Part shown: piece by piece, positions 42,859 to 64,000 of the stretch
Numbering within the stretch: position 1 is the first letter of the stretch
Layout of the letters: each line of letters starts with the position of its first letter
From: Faecousia sp.
Lineage (GTDB): Bacteria > Bacillota > Clostridia > Oscillospirales > Oscillospiraceae
Assembly: GCA_045595225.1 (NCBI GenBank)
Contig: JAZOAD010000045.1
Span: 1,733-65,732 of the forward strand
Reading direction: 5' to 3'
DNA length: 64,000 bases
Program-made: the position numbers and the translations under genes
The notes under the pieces: model-generated
Told to the model about the DNA's origin: nothing
Database searches by the model: none
What the model saw: the letters and a program-made list of their open reading frames with translations, nothing else

Positions 42859-43611
42859 ATGGCGCAATACAAATTTCTGGTATTGTTTGTTGGATTTATG
42901 GTGAATTTTCTTCTCATTTTAGGGGTTAATCGGTTAACTGGGGTGTTCCGTGGGGGAATTCGATGCCTTCTTGCTGCCTTGCTTGGCGGATTACACACCT
43001 TTGCGTCTTGTTCAGCCCGGTTCCATTTTCTGTCGGATATAGAGTGGAGATGGATCGTACTGCTGTTAACGGCGGCCATCGCGTTTGGCTTTGAGGGAAG
43101 AAGCTTTCTTTGCTGGGTATTGTTTGCGCTGCTGCGGTTTTCTATGGAGTCGCTCGCCAAAAGCGGAATATGGCCGGCGCTTCTTTTTGGAGCGGTGATT
43201 ATGCTTCTGTGGGGCATGGGAAAACCCGGTAACGGTAACTTCGCAACAGTTTCCATTTTGTTAGGCGGCAAAAAGATGGAATTAACAGCGCTACTGGATA
43301 CAGGAAATACTTTGAAAGATCCCATTACCGGACTCGGTGTGATCGTAGTGGATTGTGAGGTTGCCCGGGAAATACTTGGGCTGGACCGGGAGTCGCTGCT
43401 GCGGCCTGTGGAAACGTTTCAACAGCGGCAACTGTCCGGACTTCGATTGATCCCCTATTCTTCTGTTGGACAACCTTCCGGGATGCTGTTGGGAATGCGG
43501 GTTGACCGGCTGGAGATCAATGGGAAAAAAGTGGAAAAAATCGTGGCCTTCGCGCCACAAAGAATTGGTCAGGGAAGAGGATTTCAAGCTTTGGCGGGAG
43601 GGAATGTATGA
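42859..43611 (+). CDS. spoIIGA: Sigma-E processing aspartic peptidase
   Basis: Multi-TM N-terminus; LLDTGN.L.DPITG; RLIPY.SVG; overlaps the sigE start. Confidence 0.85.
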
Positions 43612-44315
43612 TCAAATTACGGGATATTTTGCGGTGGCTGGCGACAAGACAGGAACAGACAATCTACTATATTGGGGGCGCGGATATTTTGCCTCCGCCC
43701 TTGAAAGGACAGGAGGAAATGGATGCGCTGGAAGCGTTGGAGCAGGGGGATGAACAGGCGAAGCAGCGGCTTATTGAACATAACCTAAGGCTTGTGGTGT
43801 ATATCGCCCGGCGATTTGAGAATACCGGCGTAAATCTGGAGGATTTGATCTCCATTGGTACCATCGGCCTGATCAAAGCCATCGGCACTTATCGCAGAGA
43901 GAAAAATATCAAGCTGGCTACCTACGCATCCCGCTGTATTGAAAATGAGATACTGATGCATATCCGAAAAATTGCCTGCCAAAAAGCGGAGGTTTCCCTG
44001 GATGAGCCCATCAATATGGACTATGATGGGAATGAATTGCTGCTGAGCGATATTTTGGGAACGGAAGAGGATATCGTTATGCGGCCGATGGAGGATGATG
44101 TGGATCTGCAGCTGCTGAGGCAGGCATTGGGGCAACTGTCGGAGCGGGAGCGGGAGATCATCAATATGCGCTACGGTCTGGATGGCTGCCAGGAACTGAC
44201 ACAAAAGGATGTAGCGAGAATAATGGGTATTTCACAGTCCTATATTTCCCGGTTAGAAAAAAGGATCATGGCAAGGCTGAAAAAAGAAATGCTGCGGCAA
44301 ACAAGCTGCGTGTAA
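43608..44315 (+). CDS. sigE: Sporulation sigma factor SigE
   Basis: YYIGG...[47 protein letters not shown]. Confidence 0.93.
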
Positions 44316-45435: not shown

Positions 45436-47082
45436 TTACTTTTCCTCGTTAGCGTAGGGCTCCAGGAAAGCGTGGAAGTGACGCATGGGCAGGGTGCGGC
45501 CCTGAACGATGCGCATGTTGGGGATGGACTCGCGGTCCTCATACAGCGCCTTAACAGCGGCGATGACATAGTCCATATGCTCCTGGTTGAACATGGAACG
45601 GTTGACAGCGAAGCGGACAACGTTGCACAGCTCTTCCTGCTGCTCGGGAGTCTTCAGATCGTACTCCATGGAGTAGTCGCCAAGCTCGGAGGTGCGGATA
45701 CCGTAGCGGCGGATCAGCTCGATGGAGAAGCCCTGGCCTGCGAAGGTATCGTGGCCGCGCTTGTTGTCGAAGAACTCGGTCATGTTGATGTAAACACCGT
45801 GGCCGCCGGCGGGCAGGATGACACCCTTGACACCAGCCTTGTAGAAGCCCTGGGCCAGGTACTCACACTGCTGCACACGGGCTTCCTGGTAGTTGAAGTT
45901 GCACTCTTCGTACAGACCGGCGGTCAGCGCCATGATGTCACGGCCGGACATGCCGCCGTAGGAGTCATTGCCGTAGCAGGAGATCTGCTTGACCTTCAGG
46001 CGAACGCCGATATCAAAGACCAGGTTGCCATTCTCGTCGAAGTCGGAGAACTTTCTCCAGAAACGGCCCTTGTCACGGAAGGCCAGCATACCGCCCATGT
46101 TGGCGTGGCCGTTCTTCTTGGCGGACATGGTGAAGCCATCGCAGTAGGAGAACATCTCGGTAGCGATCTCGGCGATGGATTTGTCGGCATAGCCTTCTTC
46201 GTTGACCTTGATGAAGTAAGCGTTCTCGGCCCAGCGGGCAACGTCGAACATGAAGGGAATGTCGTACTTCTCAGCGATCTTGGCAGTTTCGCGGATGGAC
46301 TTCATGGAAACAGCCTGGCCGCAGACGGTGTTGTTGGTGATGGTGGTGTAGATCAGAGGAACATTCTCGGGGCCGACAGCTTCAATCAGCTCTTCCAGTT
46401 TTTTGACATCCATGTCGCCCTTGAAGGGGTTCTTCTCATACTTGCCGCCCTCGGGAACTTCGTACAGCAGCTCCTTGTTGTAGAGATTTCTGGGAATGGA
46501 GCCCATCTGCTTGATGTTGCCTTCGGTGGTATCGAAGTGACCGTTGGAAGGAATGGTGAAAACCTTGCCGGGATAGCGCTCAGACATGATCTTTTTGACC
46601 ATCTCGAACAGGACGGATTCGGCAGCACGGCCCTGCTGCATGATGAAGGTGTTGGGGCGCTCCAGCTGAGCGGCGCCACCGTTAAACAGACCGCCTTCAT
46701 ACTCGCACAGGTACAGCTCGTCCATCATCTTGTCGATATCGGTGCAGTCGGTGCGGATCAGGTCAATGGATTTCTTCCAGTTCTTTTCGCCGCCGCGCTC
46801 GAAAATGTCACGGAATGCGTCCAGAAGCACATAGTAGCCCTTGTTACGGCCATAGCTCTCGTCGCCCAGGAACATGGTAGCCCACTGCGCGTCGGTCATA
46901 GCGGTGGTGCCGGAGTCGGACAGCATGTCCACGGTCAGCATGCCGGCAGGGAAGGCGAACTCGTTGTAGTGGGTAGCCTTCAGGGCGCGCTCACGCTGCT
47001 CAACAGTCACTTCGGGAACATTGCGGGTCACATAAGTAACAGAGCGGGGAGTTTTTACATTCAGGGGATATTCATTTGCCAT
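45436..47082 (-). CDS. Tryptophanase / tyrosine phenol-lyase family PLP beta-eliminating lyase
   Basis: DMLSDSGT, QGRAAE, HFDTT, MSAKK (PLP lysine), YGGMSGRD, MRHF; strong codon bias. Confidence 0.85.
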   Translation of the reverse strand: MANEYPLNVKTPRSVTYVTRNVPEVTVEQRERALKATHYNEFAFPAGMLTVDMLSDSGTTAMTDAQWATMFLGDESYGRNKGYYVLLDAFRDIFERGGEKNWKKSIDLIRTDCTDIDKMMDELYLCEYEGGLFNGGAAQLERPNTFIMQQGRAAESVLFEMVKKIMSERYPGKVFTIPSNGHFDTTEGNIKQMGSIPRNLYNKELLYEVPEGGKYEKNPFKGDMDVKKLEELIEAVGPENVPLIYTTITNNTVCGQAVSMKSIRETAKIAEKYDIPFMFDVARWAENAYFIKVNEEGYADKSIAEIATEMFSYCDGFTMSAKKNGHANMGGMLAFRDKGRFWRKFSDFDENGNLVFDIGVRLKVKQISCYGNDSYGGMSGRDIMALTAGLYEECNFNYQEARVQQCEYLAQGFYKAGVKGVILPAGGHGVYINMTEFFDNKRGHDTFAGQGFSIELIRRYGIRTSELGDYSMEYDLKTPEQQEELCNVVRFAVNRSMFNQEHMDYVIAAVKALYEDRESIPNMRIVQGRTLPMRHFHAFLEPYANEEK

Positions 47083-47321: not shown

Positions 47322-47350
47322 TTGACTTTTCCAAAATACAGGCGTATACT
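47322..47350 (+). promoter_or_regulatory. Sigma-A promoter of the large protease ORF
   Basis: TTGACT-17-TATACT. Confidence 0.6.
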
Positions 47351-47508
47351 TGAAATGATATGTTGTTACTTGGTAATTACTGTATCGAAGCAAGGCTTTT
47401 TGCCGAACCCTTTTTGCGGAACCGCCGAGAAATTTCTAACGGCAACAGGGAGTAGCCAGTGGTTCTACAAAACGAAAGACACCCCCAAAAAGGAAAGGAT
47501 GAAACAAA

Positions 47509-50500
47509 GTGAAAAAGAAACTTTTCGCGCTTCTCCTGGCGCTGGTCATGATTTTCTCCATGGCTATGACCGTATCCGCAACGGAACCTCTGCCTGAGGC
47601 GGAGCTTTCTCTGCAGGTTTCCACCGGCAAGGGAAGTGTTTCTGTTGCGGTTTATCTGACCGGCGCAGAGTCTGTGACCAACGGCCGCATTACCGTCAGC
47701 TATGACCGGGAAGCTCTGACTCTGGTGGAGGCCACAACCTGCGATGTTTACGCCGTGGACAGTTTGAATGACCTGTCCGCCGGCTCCGTGACTCTGGCAT
47801 GGGTCGGCAGCGACTTGACTGCCGAAAAGACCCTGATGCTGACCCTTGTATTTGAAATCGCTGAGGGCTGCACCAAGGATCTGACCTATCGCGTGGACGC
47901 GGATGAAGTGTATGCTCCTTTTGGCGCATACTCCGTTATGTGGGACGAAGTTACCGTCAAGTACAATGCGCCTGCTGACACTACCGCGCTGGAAAGCGCC
48001 ATTAACGCGGCGCAGGGTTTGGATCCTGAGGCTTATTCTGCCGACAGCTACGCGGATGTGGAAGCCGCTCTGACCAACGCTATCGCTGTGCTGGCCAATG
48101 GGGATGCTACCCAGGCTGAGATCGACGCCGCTGCCAAGGCATTGACCGATGCGATGGCGGCGCTGCGCCCTGTAGGCTCCGCGGATGTGACCGCGCTGAA
48201 GGCTGCCATTGCCGAGGCAGAGAAGCTGGATAAGGCCCTGTATACCGAAGATACATATTCTGCTATGCAGACCGCATTGGCCGCTGCAAAGCAGGTCTTG
48301 GCTGATACCGCCGCCACCCAGGATGAAGTGGATGCCGCCACTGCAGCCCTGGAAGACGCCATTGAAGCTCTGGAACTGGAACAGCCCAATGTTGGCTCCG
48401 GTGATAACTCCAACATCGGCGCCTGGATGGCTCTGCTGCTGGTTTCCATGGCGGGTACTGCCATTATGGTAGCGGTGATGATCCGCTCCGGCAGAAGCAA
48501 GCAGCTTTGCCGCGTTCTGTCTGTTGTGCTGGTTGCCGCTATGATGTTCACCTTTATGCCCATTCAATCCGTTGCCGTGATCATGGGCGAAGACGGTGAG
48601 AATGGCGACAGCTTCCTGTCCAATATTGGGGATATCCTCTCCGGTGACTATATTGTGCAGGGCCAGGATACTTCTTTCATCGGTTCTATTAAGGAAGTAT
48701 TTGACAAGACCTTTGACCTGAAGCTGGACCAGGATATTACCACTCTGGATTCTGTTTATGAAGACAAGGACCTGGTTCGTATTCTGGTAGAGCTGGATGG
48801 CCAGTGTCTGCTTGACCAGGGCTATACCCTGAATCAGATCACCGCCAACGGCGAGCAGGTTGCCGCTGACAAGGCAAAGCTGGAACTGGTACAGACCCAT
48901 GTCGCTGCCAAGATCGAACAGATCGTAGTTGCTTCCGGCCTGGCTCTTGGTACCGACGGCGTGAAGTATAGCTATACTGTGGCCATGAATGGTTTCTCCA
49001 TTACCGTTCCCTACGGCACACTGGAAGCCATTCGTAAGATCGAAGGCGTTCAGAACGCTTTTGTGTCTACTGAATACTATGCTCCCGAAACCGCGGAAGG
49101 TGAATACACCACCAATATGTATGCCACCTCCGATTCTTTTGGCTCCGCCCAGACTTGGCATGAATTGGGCTACACCGGCAGCGGTATGGTCATCGCTGTG
49201 ATCGATACCGGCCTGGACCTGGATCATCCTTCCTTTGTTGGTTCTCCCGACGCGCCTCGCATGGACCAGGATGATGTTGCCGCTGTTCTGGAGAATCTGA
49301 ATGCATACACCCTGTTCAACAACACCAGCCCCATCAAGCTGACCGCTGAAGATCTGTATGTGAACGAGAAGGTTCCCTATGTCTTCAACTATGCGGATAA
49401 CAGCCTGGACGTCACCCATGACTACGACACCCAGGGCGATCACGGCACCCACGTTGCCGGTATCGCCGCTGCCAATAAGCTGGACACCACCCCTGTAGTG
49501 GGTGTCGCTCCCGATGCGCAGTTGGTAATCATGAAGGTCTTTGGCCAGAACCCCAGTGGCGCTACCACCGATATCGTGATCGCCGCCATCGAGGACGCTT
49601 TGATGCTTGGCGTTGATGTGATCAACATGAGCCTTGGCGCTCCTGCCGGTTTTACCGCGGACTCTCTCTTGGTTGAGCGGGTTTATGGCCGTGTTCTGGA
49701 TGCGGATGTGATGCTGGCTGTTGCCGCGGGTAACATTCCGTCCTCTGCTATTGGTAATAACCAGGGCACCAATTTGAATTATACCCGTGACCCCGATACG
49801 GGCATCGTCAACTCTCCCTCTACTTATCTGGGCGCGACCAGCGTCGCCAGCTCCGAGAATCATTATGTGATGATGCCTTATTTCTCTGTTGGTGAACATA
49901 AGCTTCCTTATGTTGACGTGACCTACGGCAATTTCGCTGCCCTTGCCGGAACCTATGAATACGTTCTGGTTCCCGGCGTCGGCGATGTTTCCGATTACGA
50001 AGGCCTGGATGTTGCCGGCCGTATTGCTGTGGTGGAGCGCGGCGTCATCGACTTCCCCACGAAACAGAAGAACGCATTTGATCAAGGCGCTATTGCTTTG
50101 ATCGTCTACGATAATGTGGAAGGCGCCCTTGTCAGTATGTATGACGGCGGCTACCTGCCCCATGTTTTCGTTTGCAAGGCTGACGGACAGAAGCTGAAGG
50201 ACGCGGCTGTTGACGGTATTGGTATCGTTACCATCCATCCCTGGGGCACCGAAACCCCCATTAAGAACGGTAACGGCGGCCAGATGAGTGATTTCTCCGC
50301 CTGGGGTGTTACCGCTGACCTGCAGCTGTCTCCTGATGTGACCGCTCCCGGCGGCAATATCTATTCCTGCTACACCGACGGCGAGTATGGTACTATGAGC
50401 GGTACCTCCATGGCCTGTCCTCACATCGCCGGTATGAGCGCGCTGGTTCTGCAGTACCTGCATGAACAGTACCCCGATTTGACCGACGCGCAGTACCATA

Positions 50501-53500
50501 TCATCGTGGAATCTCTGGTAATGTGTACCGCTGAGCCTATGCTGGCGCCCAACGGCATCCATTACTCTCCCAGAACTCAGGGCTCCGGTTATGCCAATGT
50601 GTATAACGCGGTGACCAGCCCCGTGTATCTGACCAGTTATCAAAGCGAAACCAAGGAGTGGACTCCCAAGGCTTCTATGGGCGACGATCCCGATCGCACC
50701 GGCGTGTTCACCTTCGAATTCCAGATGAACAACCTGACCGATTCTGAGCAGGTCTATCTGCTGGATGGTATTCTCATGACCGACCAGTACCTGCTGCTGG
50801 AAGGCTATGGCGATACGGAATTCTTCGGCGAAGAGGGCAGATACCTGACCGGCGATATTTCTTTCGAATTCCCCAACAGCGAAGCGCTCACCGGTTTTGA
50901 CTTTGACGGCAACGGCGCCTCCGATATGGACGATGTGCAGTATGTGCTGGATGCGATCAATGGCCTGATCCCTGTGGATGGCGATCTGGCGCTGGATCTG
51001 AACAACGACGCTGCCATCGACACCCGCGACGCCCAGTATCTGTATGAAGTTGTGGTTGGCGCCATCGAAGCCCAGCACCGTGTCACCGTTCCTGCCGGCG
51101 GCAGTGTCTCCGTTACCGTTACCGTTACGCTGTCTGACGAAGATATGGCTTACATGGATGCCCATTACGAAAACGGCGTGTACGCGGAAGGCTTTATCCG
51201 CGCTTATGCCGAAACCGAGGGCGCTGTGGACCTGAGCCTGCCCTTCGTTGGCTTCTACGGAAGCTGGGAAGATGCTCCCATCTTCGATACCGGCTGGTAC
51301 TATGAAGATCCCGAAACGGTAGAATACAACCGTTACCTGCACGTTCTGTTTGCCACTTTGGGCGATACCGGCGGCGCTGGCCTGGGTATTAACCCCTATC
51401 TGGAAGAAGAATATGACCCTGAACACAACGTTCTTTCTCCCGATGGCGACGGCTACTATGACTACATTCCTGAGATCTATGTCAGCCTTCTGCGTTCCGC
51501 GGAATTGCTTGACTTCACCTGGACCGATGATGAAACCGGCGAGATGATGTTCTATGAATATTATCCCTACGCCAGAAAGGGCTACTACTGGACAGCTTAC
51601 GGTATGGCCATGCCGATCGTTTATACCGACGGCGGCTGTATGCCCTATACCTTCTACGATGAAAACGGTAATCTGGAGGTCGAGGACCTGCAGCACCTGA
51701 CTTTGACCATCCGCGGCTACCTGGATGACGGCGAATTGGACGATATTTATATCAATGAATACGGTGTTCCCGTTCCCGATCCCATCCATGCCGACGGTGT
51801 CATTGAAGTGCCCATCGTCATTGACCTGAAAGCGCCTAAGATCGACCTGGACACCATGGTCTATCATACGGAAAATGGCCGCAACTATGTTACTTTCGAG
51901 GTGGAAGATAACTACGATGTGGCAGCCATTGTTGTCACTACTGTTGGCGGCGGCGCTTACGAGTATGTGCCCGTTGACACCAAGACTCCCGGTGTGGACG
52001 GCGAGCGCGCTACCGTTACGCTGGACATTACCGATTGCGATGCTACCTTCCAGGTCGTTGTTGCGGACTATGCCTGTAACGAAAGCTACTACGAACTGAC
52101 CAATGTGGGCAATGAAGGCCTGGCAGAGGACGAGTTCTACGCTTTCCGCCGTTACAGCACCGTAACCACCGACACTACCTATTACACCACCGATCAGCTC
52201 AATGGCTGGTACTCTTTCGTGGATGCCGACTATATGCTCAAGCACACCGCCCAGCCCAACTCCGGTGAGAAGACCGTATTTGCCGCTGAGTATGTGGACG
52301 GCTATATCTTCGGCGCTCAGGCAGGCGAGTATGATTATAATACGCTGTTTGTTATGAAGGCCGGCTCCTGGGACCGCATGGATTTCGGCTCCTCCAGAGC
52401 AATGTATCAGACCGTTTACGAATGGCCCGGCCGGGACGGTACTTACTTCCCGCTGAAGATGATCGCCCTGGATATGGCATATGACTATACCACCGGCACC
52501 ATGTACATGCTGGCCAATGCTTACGAAAACAACTATTTCCCCGAAGGCGAAGTCAATATTCTGCTGAGCCTGGATCTGGAAACCGGCGACCTGCAGATCC
52601 TGGGTAAGATCGAGCCTAAGGACGGCGAAAGCTTCCTGGCGCTGACTTTGGCCTGCGACAATGAGGGTGTGCTGTATACTGCCAACTATGAAAACGGCAA
52701 GCTTTACACCATCAATAAGGAGCCTGTGGCTACCACCGAAAAGTATGGCTACGGCACTTATGAGGCTACCTGCATCCAGGAAACCGATGCCAAGTATTGG
52801 GTAGCTGCATATACCCAGTCCATGACTGTGGACCATGCCACCAATACCCTGTATTGGGCCGCTTACCAGGGCCAGGTCGGCGTTTCCGCGTTCCTGACCA
52901 TGGATAAGTCCAACGGCGATATTTTGGCCATGACCTACACCGCGGATAACGCGGAATTGACCGGCCTGTTCAAGCCTTGGGATTCCGGCGTTGATATCAT
53001 TCCTCAGGCAGAGCTGGAAGGCATCACGCTGCGCGATGAGCAGCTGTATCTAACCATGGATCAGAGCGCTACCATCATTGCTAAGCCGCAGCCCTACAAT
53101 GCTGTGCTCGGCGAAGTCACCTTCACCAGCCTGGATGAAACGGTTGCTACGGTTACTTCCACCGGTATCGTCAATCCTGTTGGCATCGGCTCTGCCGAAG
53201 TGCTGGTGACCTGCACGATGGACGATGGCAATGTCTTTGAGCAGACCTGCATCGTCAATGTTTCCAATGTTAACGGCACGCTGTTCGGCTACTCCGATCC
53301 TTACTGGCTGCTGATGGATGCAGGTTCTCCTGACTATTCCAACCAGGTTTCCGACGCTATGGAGCTGGAGGGCACTGTTGCCGCAGCTGCCTACCGGGAC
53401 GGCTATCTGTATGTTGCAGCGATTGTGGAGGATTACGACGAGGACTATAATTCTGTCTATATCACCAATTTCTACAAGCTGAATGCTAGCACTCTGCAGG

Positions 53501-56103
53501 GTGAGCTGGTAGGCTCCTTCGATGGCAAGACCACCGCTTTGGCCTTCAACTATGCCGATGGCTTCATGTACGGTCTCAGATATTCCGAAGAATTCGATGA
53601 TGATTGGAATTTCACGGTTTCTTATGAGCTATTCCGCGTCAACATGACCACCGCTGAGACCATCGGCGTAACCACACTGGATGCTATCTATCCCAATAGC
53701 GATTTGACCTTTGAGTACACCACCTGCTCCGGCGCGTTGGCCATCGACTATGAGGGCAACTTCTATGTCAACGGCGACAATGCCGATTGGGAATACAATC
53801 TGGTTCGCTTCAATCTGGACCAGAACGATCAGATCGTGAATGTCACAGAATATACCGGCTTTGGCGAATACAGCTGGATGGGCGATGCTATGGTTTGGTC
53901 TGAGCGTAACGGCGGCATCCTCCGTGTTTCCGGCGATATGCTCCAATGGGTAGACGTTTCCGATATGGAAAATGTTGTGGCTGTGAACCTGGGGCAGATT
54001 CGTGGCGCAAATGGCTTTGTATACGCATTGGCCATTCCCGTTACCAATGAACCGGAAGTTCAGGGCGCTGTCGCAACGGAGGTGACGGTGGACTCCGTTT
54101 ACACCGTGGCACAGGGCGAAGCCGTGAAGGTTGTGCCCACGCTGAATCCCTGGAACGCTGTTGGCGAGTTTACCTTCAGTGTTGGCGATGAAACCATCGC
54201 TATGGTGGATGAAAACGGTGTGGTCATCGGTATTGCCATCGGACAGACGACGCTGACTGTTCAGGTGGTTGGCACCGATCTGGCTGTGACTACCACCATC
54301 GTCGTGGAAGAAAACCCCGGCTACCTGTATGGTTACTTCCAGGCAGAGCTGAACCAGCAGATCCCGCTGGAGGCCTGGGGCAAGATCTCGCTGGCAAACA
54401 CCAATGACTTTAGCTATATTACCGATATTTATGATCTGACCATCTATGCCGGCGCTTACTACGATGGCACTATCTACGCGGTGGGTCAGCATAATGTTGA
54501 CGGTAAGTACTACTTGCTGAAGATCAGTCCCTCCAACTTCCACTACAATATTATCTGCGAGTCCGATCTGATGGTTCGCGATCTGGCGTTTGACTACACC
54601 ACCGGCACGATGTACGCCGTTGCTTACAACGAGGTGGTTAAGGGTGGCCTTTATCAGGTGAACCTGGATACCATGGAACTGACCTTGATCGGCGACAACG
54701 ATATGGGTACCCAGCTGGTTGCTCTGGCCTGCGACGATCACGGCCAGCTCTACGCCGCGGACAACTATGGCGAAGTCTTTACTGTTGGCAAGAATGACGC
54801 CGTTCTTTCTCCCACCGGTATCTACGGCGGAACCAGCCCCTATCTGCAGTCTATGGTCTATGACTTCAACAATGATGCCATTTACTGGGCTGTTGGCGGC
54901 AGTATTTATGAGCTGGATCTGGCTGGCCGTCGAACTGTGAACATCGGCTCCACAGGATGCGCTGTCAGCGCTCTGTTCAGTGTGCCCAATGTGGAAATCC
55001 CGGTTCCCGAAACTGTGGATCCTGCCGGAGTAGTCATGGCAGAGAAGAATACGGTGGCTGTTGGCGAAACTTTGGCGATTGACGCTGTGGTTTTGCCTGT
55101 ATCTGTGGCAACTGTGAATCAGACTCTGATCTGGACTTCCTCTGATGATACTGTCGCGACTGTGGATGGCAACGGTGTGATCACCGGCATTTCCGCAGGT
55201 GAGGTTTACATCACCGCCACCGACGCCATGGGCAATTCCAACACCATCTTCATTACTGTCACCGCGGAGCATCGTTACTTCTACGGCTATGATGAGCTGA
55301 GCCGTTCCTGGGTCAAGTTCGATACCGACGGCATTATCCTGGAATCCTGGAAGGATGCCGAGGGCCTGAGCCCCATTGTGGCTGCCCAGTATATCGACGG
55401 TGTACTGTACGCCTACGATAAGGACGGCTACTTCTATACCGTAGATACCGAAACCTTCCAGCGTACGCTGATGGGTAACGGTATCAGCGGCATGACCACC
55501 AGCCTGGAGGCCTGGGACAATTCCCATAACGGTCAGGTTTACTTCGTTGATGACATTCCTTACATCATGATCGATCTGGATTATGGCGTAATCGAGTCTA
55601 GACGTGGTACATATACCGTTCTCTACGGCGTTATGATGGCTTGGCACATTTCCGATTGGCGCGACGACTTCTCTTATAAGGTTGTCGAGCTGGATATGGA
55701 AACCGGCGAGGTAACGAATGTGATCGCTGAGGATGAATTGGTGGATGGCATGAGCCTGCGTCCCACCAACCTGCTGTACCGCGGCGAAATGCTGTGGACT
55801 ATCAACGGCTATATCACCGGTTTGATCACGGTTGTGGATCCTGTATTCGGCGATGTATACGGCACAGCCATTTGCCCCGAATACTGGGGTGACTTCAATG
55901 GCGGCCGTTCCATGATCGAAGATCCGCTGACCGGTCAGGTTTACGCGATCCGCGACAAGCGTACCGGTTATATCGGTTCCGCTGACTATAACGATGAACT
56001 TTCCGCCTCTGTCCTGTGTACCATGGAGCTGGGTCTGGGCAAGGTTGATGAGGTTTGCACCGTCGGCGCGAACCTGCGTATCGTTGGTTTGTTCATCAAG
56101 TAA
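47509..56103 (+). CDS. Giant secreted S8 subtilisin-like protease fused behind a cohesin-like/FIVAR-like/sorting-signal module; contains PA, Fn3-like, dockerin-like, Big_2-like and propeller-like repeats
   Basis: GTG start with AGGAAAGGA RBS; catalytic triad motifs VIDTG, HGTHVAG and GTSMACP; ATQ.E.DAA FIVAR-like repeats; duplicated Dx[DN]x[DN] loops at about 50896-51051. Confidence 0.88.
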   Translation: MKKKLFALLLALVMIFSMAMTVSATEPLPEAELSLQVSTGKGSVSVAVYLTGAESVTNGRITVSYDREALTLVEATTCDVYAVDSLNDLSAGSVTLAWVGSDLTAEKTLMLTLVFEIAEGCTKDLTYRVDADEVYAPFGAYSVMWDEVTVKYNAPADTTALESAINAAQGLDPEAYSADSYADVEAALTNAIAVLANGDATQAEIDAAAKALTDAMAALRPVGSADVTALKAAIAEAEKLDKALYTEDTYSAMQTALAAAKQVLADTAATQDEVDAATAALEDAIEALELEQPNVGSGDNSNIGAWMALLLVSMAGTAIMVAVMIRSGRSKQLCRVLSVVLVAAMMFTFMPIQSVAVIMGEDGENGDSFLSNIGDILSGDYIVQGQDTSFIGSIKEVFDKTFDLKLDQDITTLDSVYEDKDLVRILVELDGQCLLDQGYTLNQITANGEQVAADKAKLELVQTHVAAKIEQIVVASGLALGTDGVKYSYTVAMNGFSITVPYGTLEAIRKIEGVQNAFVSTEYYAPETAEGEYTTNMYATSDSFGSAQTWHELGYTGSGMVIAVIDTGLDLDHPSFVGSPDAPRMDQDDVAAVLENLNAYTLFNNTSPIKLTAEDLYVNEKVPYVFNYADNSLDVTHDYDTQGDHGTHVAGIAAANKLDTTPVVGVAPDAQLVIMKVFGQNPSGATTDIVIAAIEDALMLGVDVINMSLGAPAGFTADSLLVERVYGRVLDADVMLAVAAGNIPSSAIGNNQGTNLNYTRDPDTGIVNSPSTYLGATSVASSENHYVMMPYFSVGEHKLPYVDVTYGNFAALAGTYEYVLVPGVGDVSDYEGLDVAGRIAVVERGVIDFPTKQKNAFDQGAIALIVYDNVEGALVSMYDGGYLPHVFVCKADGQKLKDAAVDGIGIVTIHPWGTETPIKNGNGGQMSDFSAWGVTADLQLSPDVTAPGGNIYSCYTDGEYGTMSGTSMACPHIAGMSALVLQYLHEQYPDLTDAQYHIIVESLVMCTAEPMLAPNGIHYSPRTQGSGYANVYNAVTSPVYLTSYQSETKEWTPKASMGDDPDRTGVFTFEFQMNNLTDSEQVYLLDGILMTDQYLLLEGYGDTEFFGEEGRYLTGDISFEFPNSEALTGFDFDGNGASDMDDVQYVLDAINGLIPVDGDLALDLNNDAAIDTRDAQYLYEVVVGAIEAQHRVTVPAGGSVSVTVTVTLSDEDMAYMDAHYENGVYAEGFIRAYAETEGAVDLSLPFVGFYGSWEDAPIFDTGWYYEDPETVEYNRYLHVLFATLGDTGGAGLGINPYLEEEYDPEHNVLSPDGDGYYDYIPEIYVSLLRSAELLDFTWTDDETGEMMFYEYYPYARKGYYWTAYGMAMPIVYTDGGCMPYTFYDENGNLEVEDLQHLTLTIRGYLDDGELDDIYINEYGVPVPDPIHADGVIEVPIVIDLKAPKIDLDTMVYHTENGRNYVTFEVEDNYDVAAIVVTTVGGGAYEYVPVDTKTPGVDGERATVTLDITDCDATFQVVVADYACNESYYELTNVGNEGLAEDEFYAFRRYSTVTTDTTYYTTDQLNGWYSFVDADYMLKHTAQPNSGEKTVFAAEYVDGYIFGAQAGEYDYNTLFVMKAGSWDRMDFGSSRAMYQTVYEWPGRDGTYFPLKMIALDMAYDYTTGTMYMLANAYENNYFPEGEVNILLSLDLETGDLQILGKIEPKDGESFLALTLACDNEGVLYTANYENGKLYTINKEPVATTEKYGYGTYEATCIQETDAKYWVAAYTQSMTVDHATNTLYWAAYQGQVGVSAFLTMDKSNGDILAMTYTADNAELTGLFKPWDSGVDIIPQAELEGITLRDEQLYLTMDQSATIIAKPQPYNAVLGEVTFTSLDETVATVTSTGIVNPVGIGSAEVLVTCTMDDGNVFEQTCIVNVSNVNGTLFGYSDPYWLLMDAGSPDYSNQVSDAMELEGTVAAAAYRDGYLYVAAIVEDYDEDYNSVYITNFYKLNASTLQGELVGSFDGKTTALAFNYADGFMYGLRYSEEFDDDWNFTVSYELFRVNMTTAETIGVTTLDAIYPNSDLTFEYTTCSGALAIDYEGNFYVNGDNADWEYNLVRFNLDQNDQIVNVTEYTGFGEYSWMGDAMVWSERNGGILRVSGDMLQWVDVSDMENVVAVNLGQIRGANGFVYALAIPVTNEPEVQGAVATEVTVDSVYTVAQGEAVKVVPTLNPWNAVGEFTFSVGDETIAMVDENGVVIGIAIGQTTLTVQVVGTDLAVTTTIVVEENPGYLYGYFQAELNQQIPLEAWGKISLANTNDFSYITDIYDLTIYAGAYYDGTIYAVGQHNVDGKYYLLKISPSNFHYNIICESDLMVRDLAFDYTTGTMYAVAYNEVVKGGLYQVNLDTMELTLIGDNDMGTQLVALACDDHGQLYAADNYGEVFTVGKNDAVLSPTGIYGGTSPYLQSMVYDFNNDAIYWAVGGSIYELDLAGRRTVNIGSTGCAVSALFSVPNVEIPVPETVDPAGVVMAEKNTVAVGETLAIDAVVLPVSVATVNQTLIWTSSDDTVATVDGNGVITGISAGEVYITATDAMGNSNTIFITVTAEHRYFYGYDELSRSWVKFDTDGIILESWKDAEGLSPIVAAQYIDGVLYAYDKDGYFYTVDTETFQRTLMGNGISGMTTSLEAWDNSHNGQVYFVDDIPYIMIDLDYGVIESRRGTYTVLYGVMMAWHISDWRDDFSYKVVELDMETGEVTNVIAEDELVDGMSLRPTNLLYRGEMLWTINGYITGLITVVDPVFGDVYGTAICPEYWGDFNGGRSMIEDPLTGQVYAIRDKRTGYIGSADYNDELSASVLCTMELGLGKVDEVCTVGANLRIVGLFIK

Positions 56104-56123: not shown

Positions 56124-56155
56124 AAAAGCCGGCATCCTTCGGGGTGCCGGCTTTT
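56124..56155 (+). terminator. Terminator after the protease ORF
   Basis: AAAAGCCGGCATCC/GGGTGCCGGCTTTT. Confidence 0.75.
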
Positions 56156-56204: not shown

Positions 56205-56233
56205 TTGACAGAAATCACATTTTCCATTATAAT
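56205..56233 (+). promoter_or_regulatory. Consensus promoter of tRNA-Pro(CGG)
   Basis: TTGACA-17-TATAAT. Confidence 0.8.
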
Positions 56234-56244
56234 ACTGTGGCTAT

Positions 56245-56321
56245 CGAGGTGTGGCGAAGTTTGGTATCGCGCTTGGTTCGGGTCCAAGAGACCTCGGGTT
56301 CGAATCCCGACACTTCGACCA
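56245..56321 (+). tRNA. tRNA-Pro (anticodon CGG)
   Basis: Acceptor stem CGAGGTG/CACTTCG; anticodon arm CTTGG-TTCGGGT-CCAAG; GGTTCGAATCC T-arm; encoded CCA. Confidence 0.95.
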
Positions 56322-60327: not shown

Positions 60328-60404
60328 CCGGGTGTGGCGAAGTTTGGTATCGCGCTTGAATGGGGTTCAAGAGGCCTCGAGTTCGAATCTCGACACTCGG
60401 ACCA
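60328..60404 (+). tRNA. tRNA-Pro (anticodon GGG)
   Basis: Acceptor stem CCGGGTG/CACTCGG; anticodon arm CTTGA-ATGGGGT-TCAAG; GTTCGAATC T-arm; encoded CCA. Confidence 0.95.
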
Positions 60405-63482: not shown

Positions 63483-63575
63483 TTATAAGTGTGATTATGT
63501 CATTATTTGGCTGAATCCATTGTGCAAAAGAGGTCCGCTCATTTGCCAAAGCAAGCAAAATCAAAGGAGGATCCC

Positions 63576-64000
63576 ATGAAAACTGCAAGAAAAATGATCT
63601 GCGCGCTTATGCTGGCATCGTTGCTGCTGACGGTCATGAGCGCATCGGTTTTCGCAACGGAAACAGACAACGCCTGGCTCCAGGTGGACGATTCTGAAGA
63701 GAACGTCACAAAGGTTTCTTTCCTTGCCGATACCGCCATCACCGACGGACTGATCACCGTCAGCTTTGACGCGGAGCAGCTGAGCTATGCCGGATTGGAA
63801 GTGAATTCCGATTGCGTAGCGTACAGCTCTGTCAACGGGGATACCCCCGGCGTTATCAAGCTGGCATGGGTCAGCGCCGGGGAATATGAGGCCCAGGATC
63901 TGGCCCTGTTTACGCTGACCTTTAACGGCGTGTCGGAGCAAAAGATCACCATGTCCGGCTCTTTGACCGACCGTGAGGGTAATGCGCTGACCATTGGCGA
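63576..64000 (+). CDS. Secreted protein with an N-terminal cohesin-like domain (partial, runs off the window; absent from the ORF track)
   Basis: AAGGAGG RBS; MKTARKMICALMLASLLLTVMSASVFA signal peptide; TDGLITVSFDAEQL...GVIKLAWVS...LFTLTF resembles the N-terminus of ORF 47509; no stop codon before the window end. Confidence 0.8.
   Translation, partial: MKTARKMICALMLASLLLTVMSASVFATETDNAWLQVDDSEENVTKVSFLADTAITDGLITVSFDAEQLSYAGLEVNSDCVAYSSVNGDTPGVIKLAWVSAGEYEAQDLALFTLTFNGVSEQKITMSGSLTDREGNALTIG

Follow-up and report, generated by a model that had tools for sequence, protein, structure and literature searches.

The window analysed here is a stretch of 64,000 nucleotides from one contig (JAZOAD010000045.1) of Faecousia sp., an Oscillospiraceae bacterium whose assembly (GCA_045595225.1) is a draft, 82% complete. 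In its second half we found a very long open reading frame (ORF) that is, judged by its sequence, an in-frame fusion of a cohesin anchor gene with the gene of a dockerin-bearing S8 protease. The two halves are separated by a segment that resembles a sorting signal joined to a signal peptide. Along the ORF, the features are the following:

47509..56103, +: whole ORF, 2864 aa (P0001), an open frame without internal stop
47509..47580, +: first signal peptide, aa 1-24, ending VSA (from the sequence; A24 invariant in 30/30)
47590..47967, +: predicted cohesin domain, aa 28-153 (model, fold match, Atlas 0.96)
47977..48171, +: FIVAR repeat 1, aa 157-221 (Pfam, model)
48184..48375, +: FIVAR repeat 2, aa 226-289 (Pfam, model)
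48385..48405, +: worn sortase-type motif PNVGSGD, aa 293-299 (PxTG in relatives; sequence comparison)
48415..48483, +: aa 303-325, predicted membrane helix 1, crossing from outside to inside (19-aa hydropathy 2.42)
48484..48513, +: basic loop RSGRSKQLCR, predicted to be cytoplasmic, aa 326-335 (4 K/R, 0 D/E)
48514..48576, +: second signal peptide (h and c regions), aa 336-356, with a predicted cut after A356, between SVA and VIMGED
48892..49080, +: I9 propeptide, aa 462-524 (Pfam 19.9 bits, slightly under the cut-off of 21.2)
49177..50589, +: S8 subtilase domain, aa 557-1027 (Pfam, E 2.6e-49)
50887..51066, +: putative dockerin inserted in an Fn3-like domain, aa 1127-1186 (two Ca-loop repeats)
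51259..56100, +: C-terminal region, aa 1251-2864, with three Big_2 domains and other repeats (Pfam)

A preliminary description of the locus had placed a signal peptide ending TVSA and a cohesin-like beta domain at the N-terminus, and both are present. A model of aa 1-404 made by AlphaFold from 29 sequences shows aa 31-150 as a beta-sandwich with a predicted local distance difference test score (pLDDT) of 83-90. When this model was compared with 48,161 solved chains by VIA-align search, all 13 top structural matches were cohesins (best Z 15.4, root-mean-square deviation 2.0 over 125 aa); the cohesins of OlpA and OlpC are among the best of them, and those of Clostridium perfringens, 2w1n and 2vo8, match with Z 13.8. 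As modelled, aa 28-153 has a cohesin fold. A phmmer search of the cohesin against PDB sequences gave no useful match. The three FIVAR-like repeats proposed at first are reduced to two, the third being rejected because Pfam gives two stretches and the model has six helices in this part.

The protease half follows the expected order. Pfam found the propeptide, the S8 domain with its complete triad (D566, H645, and S967, invariant in the alignment), a PA insert at aa 824-896 within the S8 domain and an Fn3_5 domain after it. The nearest solved proteins of the S8 region are cell-envelope proteinases (E 5e-71 to 2e-54). The dockerin-like module at aa 1127-1186 is placed by the Atlas with Dockerin_1 at 0.95 (29 of 30 matches are Dockerin_1), and five of its aspartates (D1131, D1142, D1163, D1167, and D1174) are invariant; on these grounds it is best described as a type I-like dockerin. 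In a phmmer search against PDB sequences, it gave weak matches only (E of at least 0.13), 2jnk being one that is weakly matched. The long repeats run, as described, to a GLFIK end at which we found no anchor, and all 33 fused proteins considered below share a strand-like C-terminal tail, G-[LM]-F-I-x. The likeliest role of the enzyme would be nutritional, the digestion of protein at the cell surface.

The fusion is not confined to this contig. A search with aa 1-540 gave 246 matches, and among the best 120 of them, which were examined, there are at least 29 full-length fused relatives (2804-2903 aa, 36-70% identity over aa 1-540). A second search added three more, which makes 32 relatives and, with the protein studied here, 33 fused proteins. 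All 33 have the junction layout, the dockerin pattern and the catalytic triad, and all lack an anchor. Among 400 genomes of the genus, four others carry this fusion and many have a split pair. Scanning GTDB with aa 1-464 gave 26 loci, almost all of which match in the FIVARs alone. The preliminary description had named a stop or frameshift in reads across 48400-48600 as grounds for abandoning the fusion; there is none, and contigs of 4/4 sequencing runs, from four studies (one of which may be the source of the assembly), bridge the interval without an indel. Run X7, an RNA library, covers the gene, although its contigs cannot show transcription. In one relative (L050:3830-3900), a frameshift lies inside the protease, away from the junction, and could be an error or decay.

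At the junction, PNVGSGD, the hydrophobic aa 303-325 and RSGRSK stand in an open frame, as had been noted, and lead directly into the second signal-peptide-like segment, which ends QSVA at 48576 and resembles the start of ORF 10158 (MKKINKLLSVVLCLAMV). The AlphaFold model has a helical hairpin here (303-326/330-348). In 33/33 fused proteins there is a hydrophobic helix, a basic loop and a second hydrophobic stretch, followed by Pro at -6, a small residue at -3 and Ala at -1; Pro(-6) and Ala(-1) belonged to the search pattern behind this count, and in a plain alignment independent of that pattern P351, A356, and G360 are invariant in 30/30. The loop holds 3-8 K/R and at most one D/E in the 31 rows examined, and the second hydrophobic stretch is short, with acidic residues after it. 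The kept Pro(-6)/small(-3)/Ala(-1) points to signal peptidase I, since it fits the Ala-X-Ala rule for its sites (PMC8767453), and the genome has two S26 genes for this enzyme. In 7/7 ungapped junction stretches there is no stop in the coding frame, and the second signal peptide varies least at codon position 2 (0.16 versus 0.50 and 0.58).

A profile made from nine junctions was run on 1.84 billion representatives and gave 296 matches. In the 150 matches listed, the first half of the profile falls on the C-terminal ends (sorting signals) of many proteins and the second half on the first 40 residues (N-terminal signal peptides) of proteins, as expected for a sorting signal joined to a signal peptide. 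The sortase motif itself is variable: TG stands at the motif site in 21 of the 33 fused members and in 2 of the 11 closest, and the full PxTG in 7 of the 33 (P0009 was counted by eye in these tallies), while NCBIfam sorting-signal models gave no match in this protein. One sortase gene (PF04203, above cut-off) and many stand-alone PxTG substrates are found in the genome. Because the sortase threonine is lost in PNVGSGD, it seems somewhat more probable that the anchor of this protein is held in the membrane by its hairpin than that it is linked to the wall; in the relatives with PxTG, the anchor may be wall-linked. A scan of the genome for other hairpin polyproteins, covering 627 ORFs of at least 450 aa, returned only this protein and one implausible ORF.

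The preliminary description had also suggested a comparison of fused with split homologs. Both kinds exist, and a split pair begins at the end of this very window:

63507..64000 (likely ATG 63576), +: start of the split paralog, a stand-alone cohesin-2xFIVAR-PNTG-transmembrane (TM) gene (G000:C45:65239-66285)

Its second gene, which lies beyond the window (G000:C45:66246-72158), codes for an anchorless 1960-aa S8 protease with an internal dockerin, and the stop of the cohesin gene overlaps the protease start (ATGA). Giant S8 proteases of this type have 10 paralogs in the genome. In relatives, too, a cohesin-anchor gene lies directly ahead of an anchorless dockerin-protease, with anchors of the TM, SLH or lipoprotein-like kind. 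The nearest proteases to the fused one are encoded by separate genes, each behind a cohesin gene that has an SLH-type tail (11 loci by sequence, of which L110 was confirmed by Pfam) or is lipoprotein-like (L126). One split cohesin partner (L098:2001-3125) has no sorting signal or SLH at its end but a pair of amphipathic Trp-rich repeats (…DWIKGWFGGWGK), which may be a fourth kind of anchor.

A second fusion, P0122 (L094:3638-10471, - strand; Oscillospiraceae by its source label), reads PDTGD-TM-MNKK-signal peptide-ARA at its junction, and the hairpin is retained by all five cluster members whose sequence spans the junction. In the S8 tree, the main fusion is one clade adjoining the SLH-type split genes, and P0122 falls inside the TM-type split clade; forcing both fusions together is 203 log units worse (approximately unbiased test, p 8e-10, on 22 of 47 rows and a quick LG+G4 tree, the trees being unrooted). 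The simple reading is that the fusion would have arisen at least twice from a two-gene operon; a single old fusion that was later split many times is formally conceivable but less simple. Two long proteases (L128 and L133, of 3010 and 3042 aa) considered as further fusions were rejected on inspection.

The distribution of the two modules suggests that they belong together. In two protease sets picked without the cohesin (9 of this genome and 20 by protease similarity), an internal dockerin is present in 17/29, and 16 of these 17 come with a cohesin, either within the chain or in the preceding gene, versus 0/12 of the proteases without an internal dockerin; this is a pattern and not a statistic, as the profiles were trained partly on the same sequences and kin are not independent. 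A paralog with a dockerin that is cut by a contig start (C61) was left out of the count. The cohesin-SLH gene of the 17th dockerin-protease (L124) is frameshifted. That locus (L124:8186-9904) holds the broken cohesin-SLH gene together with a broken protease start, by error or decay. In the cohesin tree, each fused cohesin groups with cohesins that partner relatives of its own protease. Four cohesins of the family occur in the genome, along with at least 13 dockerin-like matches, and these four are scattered in the tree, each among the partners of its own protease group. A strict 1:1 pairing of cohesin and dockerin would be plausible. Beside the fused and split genes there is a third layout, in which the cohesin lies near the C-terminal end of the dockerin-protease itself:

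G000:C140:17251-23562, G000:C31:56784-63032, and L136-L143: third-layout S8 proteases, ending in PxTG, SLH or a further dockerin

This arrangement may act as a leash that stays intact after self-cleavage. Many secreted proteins of the genome (contigs C4, C7, C31, C37, C61, C68, C143, and C165) share a C-terminal dockerin of a different type, almost identical among them, and the profiles used here found no separate anchor for these proteins in the 82%-complete assembly.

We consider it likely that the precursor threads the membrane out-in-out, is cut by signal peptidase I after A356 and loses its propeptide, and that the dockerin then holds the enzyme on the cohesin. The first signal peptide would export the cohesin and the two FIVARs; helix 303-325 would stop the transfer, the basic loop would stay inside and helix 336-356 would restart export, up to the predicted cut. 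Propeptide removal, which is autocatalytic in subtilases, would separate the enzyme from the anchor in any case: since the propeptide lies between the hairpin and the catalytic domain, even an enzyme never cut by signal peptidase would, once mature, no longer be covalently joined to the anchor, and the dockerin is then the only tether in sight. The Ca-binding dockerin would grip the cohesin and keep the anchorless enzyme on the cell, and the fusion would ensure that each enzyme comes with one anchor, produced in the same place.

Several points weigh against this reading, the limits of the co-occurrence count given above being one of them. The pLDDT falls below 50 from aa 351, around the predicted cut. 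The four domains named in advance for hidden Markov model scans were matched only in part: Pfam matched FIVAR and Peptidase_S8, but here the cohesin (PF00963, 20.3 bits, cut-off 24.1) and the dockerin (PF00404, 12.6 bits) both fell below their cut-offs. In relatives, PF00963 is listed for 4 fused proteins, and PF00404 exceeds its cut-off of 22.9 in 4/7 matching modules, one of them in a fused member. The other cohesins and dockerins of the genome could cross-bind. The third layout has no hairpin between its modules, so the pair does not need a membrane cut. The last point, an ATG at 48466, is taken up below with the internal starts.

The hairpin might never be cut by signal peptidase. It would then be a permanent internal membrane anchor and the cohesin-dockerin contact a clasp within one chain, the enzyme being freed by its own propeptide processing alone, or never. 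The third-layout proteases, which have a dockerin, a cohesin and a C-terminal anchor in one chain, make such a clasp conceivable, but we regard it as unlikely, given that the cleavage-site residues are kept throughout the 33 fused proteins and in the independent fusion P0122, and that the second half of the hairpin, short and followed by acidic residues, matches real signal peptides.

It is still less probable that the precursor is cut and the protease is then shed or docks on any cohesin of the genome, the fusion coupling expression only. The number of family cohesins and dockerin-like matches in the genome would leave room for such exchange. Both the joint occurrence of dockerin and cohesin (16/17 against 0/12) and the position of the four cohesins among the partners of their own protease groups argue otherwise.

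One mRNA could also yield two proteins if translation began a second time near ATG 48478 or 48466, with the fusion being a lost stop codon. A Met or a TTG Leu often precedes IRSG, and in a crude pairing test ATG 48466 has a score like that of a ribosome-binding site (RBS) of -5.9 (one relative has -6.1), close to the -6.1 of the true start at 47509, which is the remaining point against the processing that we prefer. However, ATG 48478, ahead of which no clear RBS had been seen at first, pairs with a generic anti-Shine-Dalgarno sequence at -2.8 kcal/mol, versus -10.2 to -12.7 kcal/mol at 19/19 split protease starts, and 5/8 fused loci have no internal candidate better than -3.7 (locus L049 was missed by the pattern in this test). 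In addition, P0012 has Lys, and several relatives Leu, at that position. No conserved internal RBS was found at the junction in the fused loci tested; an internal translation start there appears unlikely, and we give two separately started proteins very little credit. That the join is an assembly or sequencing error between two neighboring genes, as the draft state of the genome and the existence of split versions might suggest, was rejected as having next to no probability in view of the 32 fused relatives and the indel-free contigs across the junction.

Products of a single ORF that are cut at a signal peptide lying internally, behind a membrane segment, are known from the FbcH precursor of Bradyrhizobium japonicum and from flavivirus structural polyproteins, unrelated proteins that have no cohesin-dockerin recapture. 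A closer parallel is found in the streptococcal IgA1/Zmp proteases, for which an N-terminal hairpin layout has already been described (PMC3518915). The cassette of these M26 zinc metalloproteases (IgA1 protease/ZmpA, ZmpB, ZmpC, and ZmpD) is common with this protein and consists here of a signal peptide, a sorting motif (worn in this case), two hydrophobic segments and a second predicted signal peptidase site; by analogy, the hairpin layout is a variant of the Zmp-type layout and not a new category. In contrast to the streptococcal proteins, the enzyme here is an S8 serine protease and not M26, a folded cohesin and FIVARs stand ahead of the hairpin, the dockerin gives the enzyme an explicit (predicted) means to re-attach, and split two-gene ancestors are known for this fusion. 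The ZmpB model matches the FIVAR stretch only.

The anchor would resemble ScaE of Ruminococcus flavefaciens and OlpA/OlpC in displaying a dockerin enzyme on a single anchored cohesin, and ScaE binds a dockerin-bearing peptidase (PMC5301203). In the ScaE system, however, a shared anchor is encoded apart from the enzyme, whereas here they form one ORF or a dedicated pair, and the dockerin lies within an Fn3-like domain instead of at the C-terminus as in ScaE-type enzymes. The idea of a cellulosome-like proteolytic complex did not hold up: a cellulosome has a multi-cohesin scaffoldin and carbohydrate-active enzymes, and the ORF has one cohesin, one protease and no CAZy domain (Pfam), so membership was rejected. 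By analogy, the cohesin half would work like a one-site anchor. Non-cellulosomal glycoside hydrolases of C. perfringens have like cohesin and FIVAR modules, and their 2jnk dockerin resembles the one here weakly, but they are other enzymes, in separate genes, with no internal hairpin. The enzyme itself shares its propeptide, S8 domain with PA insert and Fn3-like domains with the cell-envelope proteinases of the S8 family (C5a peptidase, SpyCEP, and the PrtR/lactocepin type). Those are held by a C-terminal anchor, whereas this enzyme has no C-terminal cell-wall anchor, and it scores far below the cut-off of the nearest NCBIfam family, which is named LPXTG-anchored. A search of the literature, limited largely to papers outside subscription and without their supplements, did not turn up any protease with a dockerin that is fused to a cohesin anchor.

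The hairpin also occurs elsewhere. About 35 of the 150 listed matches to the junction profile (of 296) have the whole hairpin inside unrelated proteins. The 38 matches inspected one by one included three that were rejected as other families: P0221 is a fragment of the cohesin-protease fusion family, P0249 matches through FIVAR alone, and P0228 seems to read through a stretch between genes. Twenty-six aligned proteins (P0226, P0245, P0292, and 23 others; alignment A5) are one DUF11-like family. In it, a DUF11-like domain stands behind the first signal peptide and ahead of a TG, a helix and a basic loop, and the second signal peptide and two conserved strands come next. Its TG is invariant (26/26) and its cargo varied (for example VWA, LRR, GDSL, and S8), and the two strands that follow the cut may complete the N-terminal Ig fold of the anchor. 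Internal sorting-signal models scored above cut-off in 4/9 proteins scanned. Another set (P0270, P0222, P0294, P0262, P0275, and P0299) has an internal PxTGD, a helix and a signal peptide, and includes pilin-like proteins (FctA and Cna_B), one unnamed family and a 3660-aa amylase/pullulanase with a further signal, PQTGD, at its end.

The presence of the hairpin in unrelated proteins indicates that this joint has been used more than once, and in some families the motif within the ORF is still a canonical sortase motif. We raise, tentatively and at slightly less than even odds, the possibility that gut Firmicutes use the sorting-signal plus signal-peptide hairpin as a general polyprotein joint, with anchor and cargo rejoining outside the cell. 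In this case, and with the same reserve, the clip would be the cohesin-dockerin pair in the proteins studied here, where the joint would have arisen at least twice, and the DUF11-like family would be a separate user.

Two features flank the gene itself:

47322..47350, +: sigma-A/70-like promoter match, TTGACT-17-TATACT (consensus scan, 10/12; no evidence of function)
56124..56155, +: 14-bp terminator-like hairpin after the stop codon (-24.8 kcal/mol)

The terminator scan of the window does not have this hairpin among its entries. A 1819-aa ORF (47377-52836, - strand) runs antisense over the fusion gene and is present in relatives too; it has no NCBIfam match and is read as a shadow frame. The divergent neighbor (45436-47082, - strand) is a tryptophanase-family pyridoxal phosphate enzyme (NF009709, above cut-off), and a link to amino-acid use following proteolysis is only a guess. 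Further upstream, 43608-44315 (+) codes for the sporulation sigma factor SigE, which fits a spore-forming Firmicute. Downstream, a perfect promoter match (TTGACA-17-TATAAT) stands ahead of a tRNA-Pro(CGG), with a second tRNA-Pro(GGG) near it (window 56205-56321 and 60328-60404, +).

If the hairpin is indeed a general polyprotein joint, it would give a testable answer to how N-terminally anchored enzymes such as the IgA1/Zmp proteases stay on the cell after the second cut. The cohesin-dockerin pair would serve as a private tether for one protease, available in three interchangeable gene layouts (two genes, an N-terminal fusion across the membrane, and a cohesin at the far end of the chain) and with interchangeable anchors (sortase-type, SLH, and lipoprotein-like). 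The fused and split versions in the same genome are a natural control for cleavage and recapture. Annotators should note that a sorting signal found mid-ORF need not mean that a stop codon has been lost. Gut bacteria of the uncultured Oscillospiraceae type are rich in giant proteases, and the way in which these are displayed bears on the breakdown of protein in the gut.

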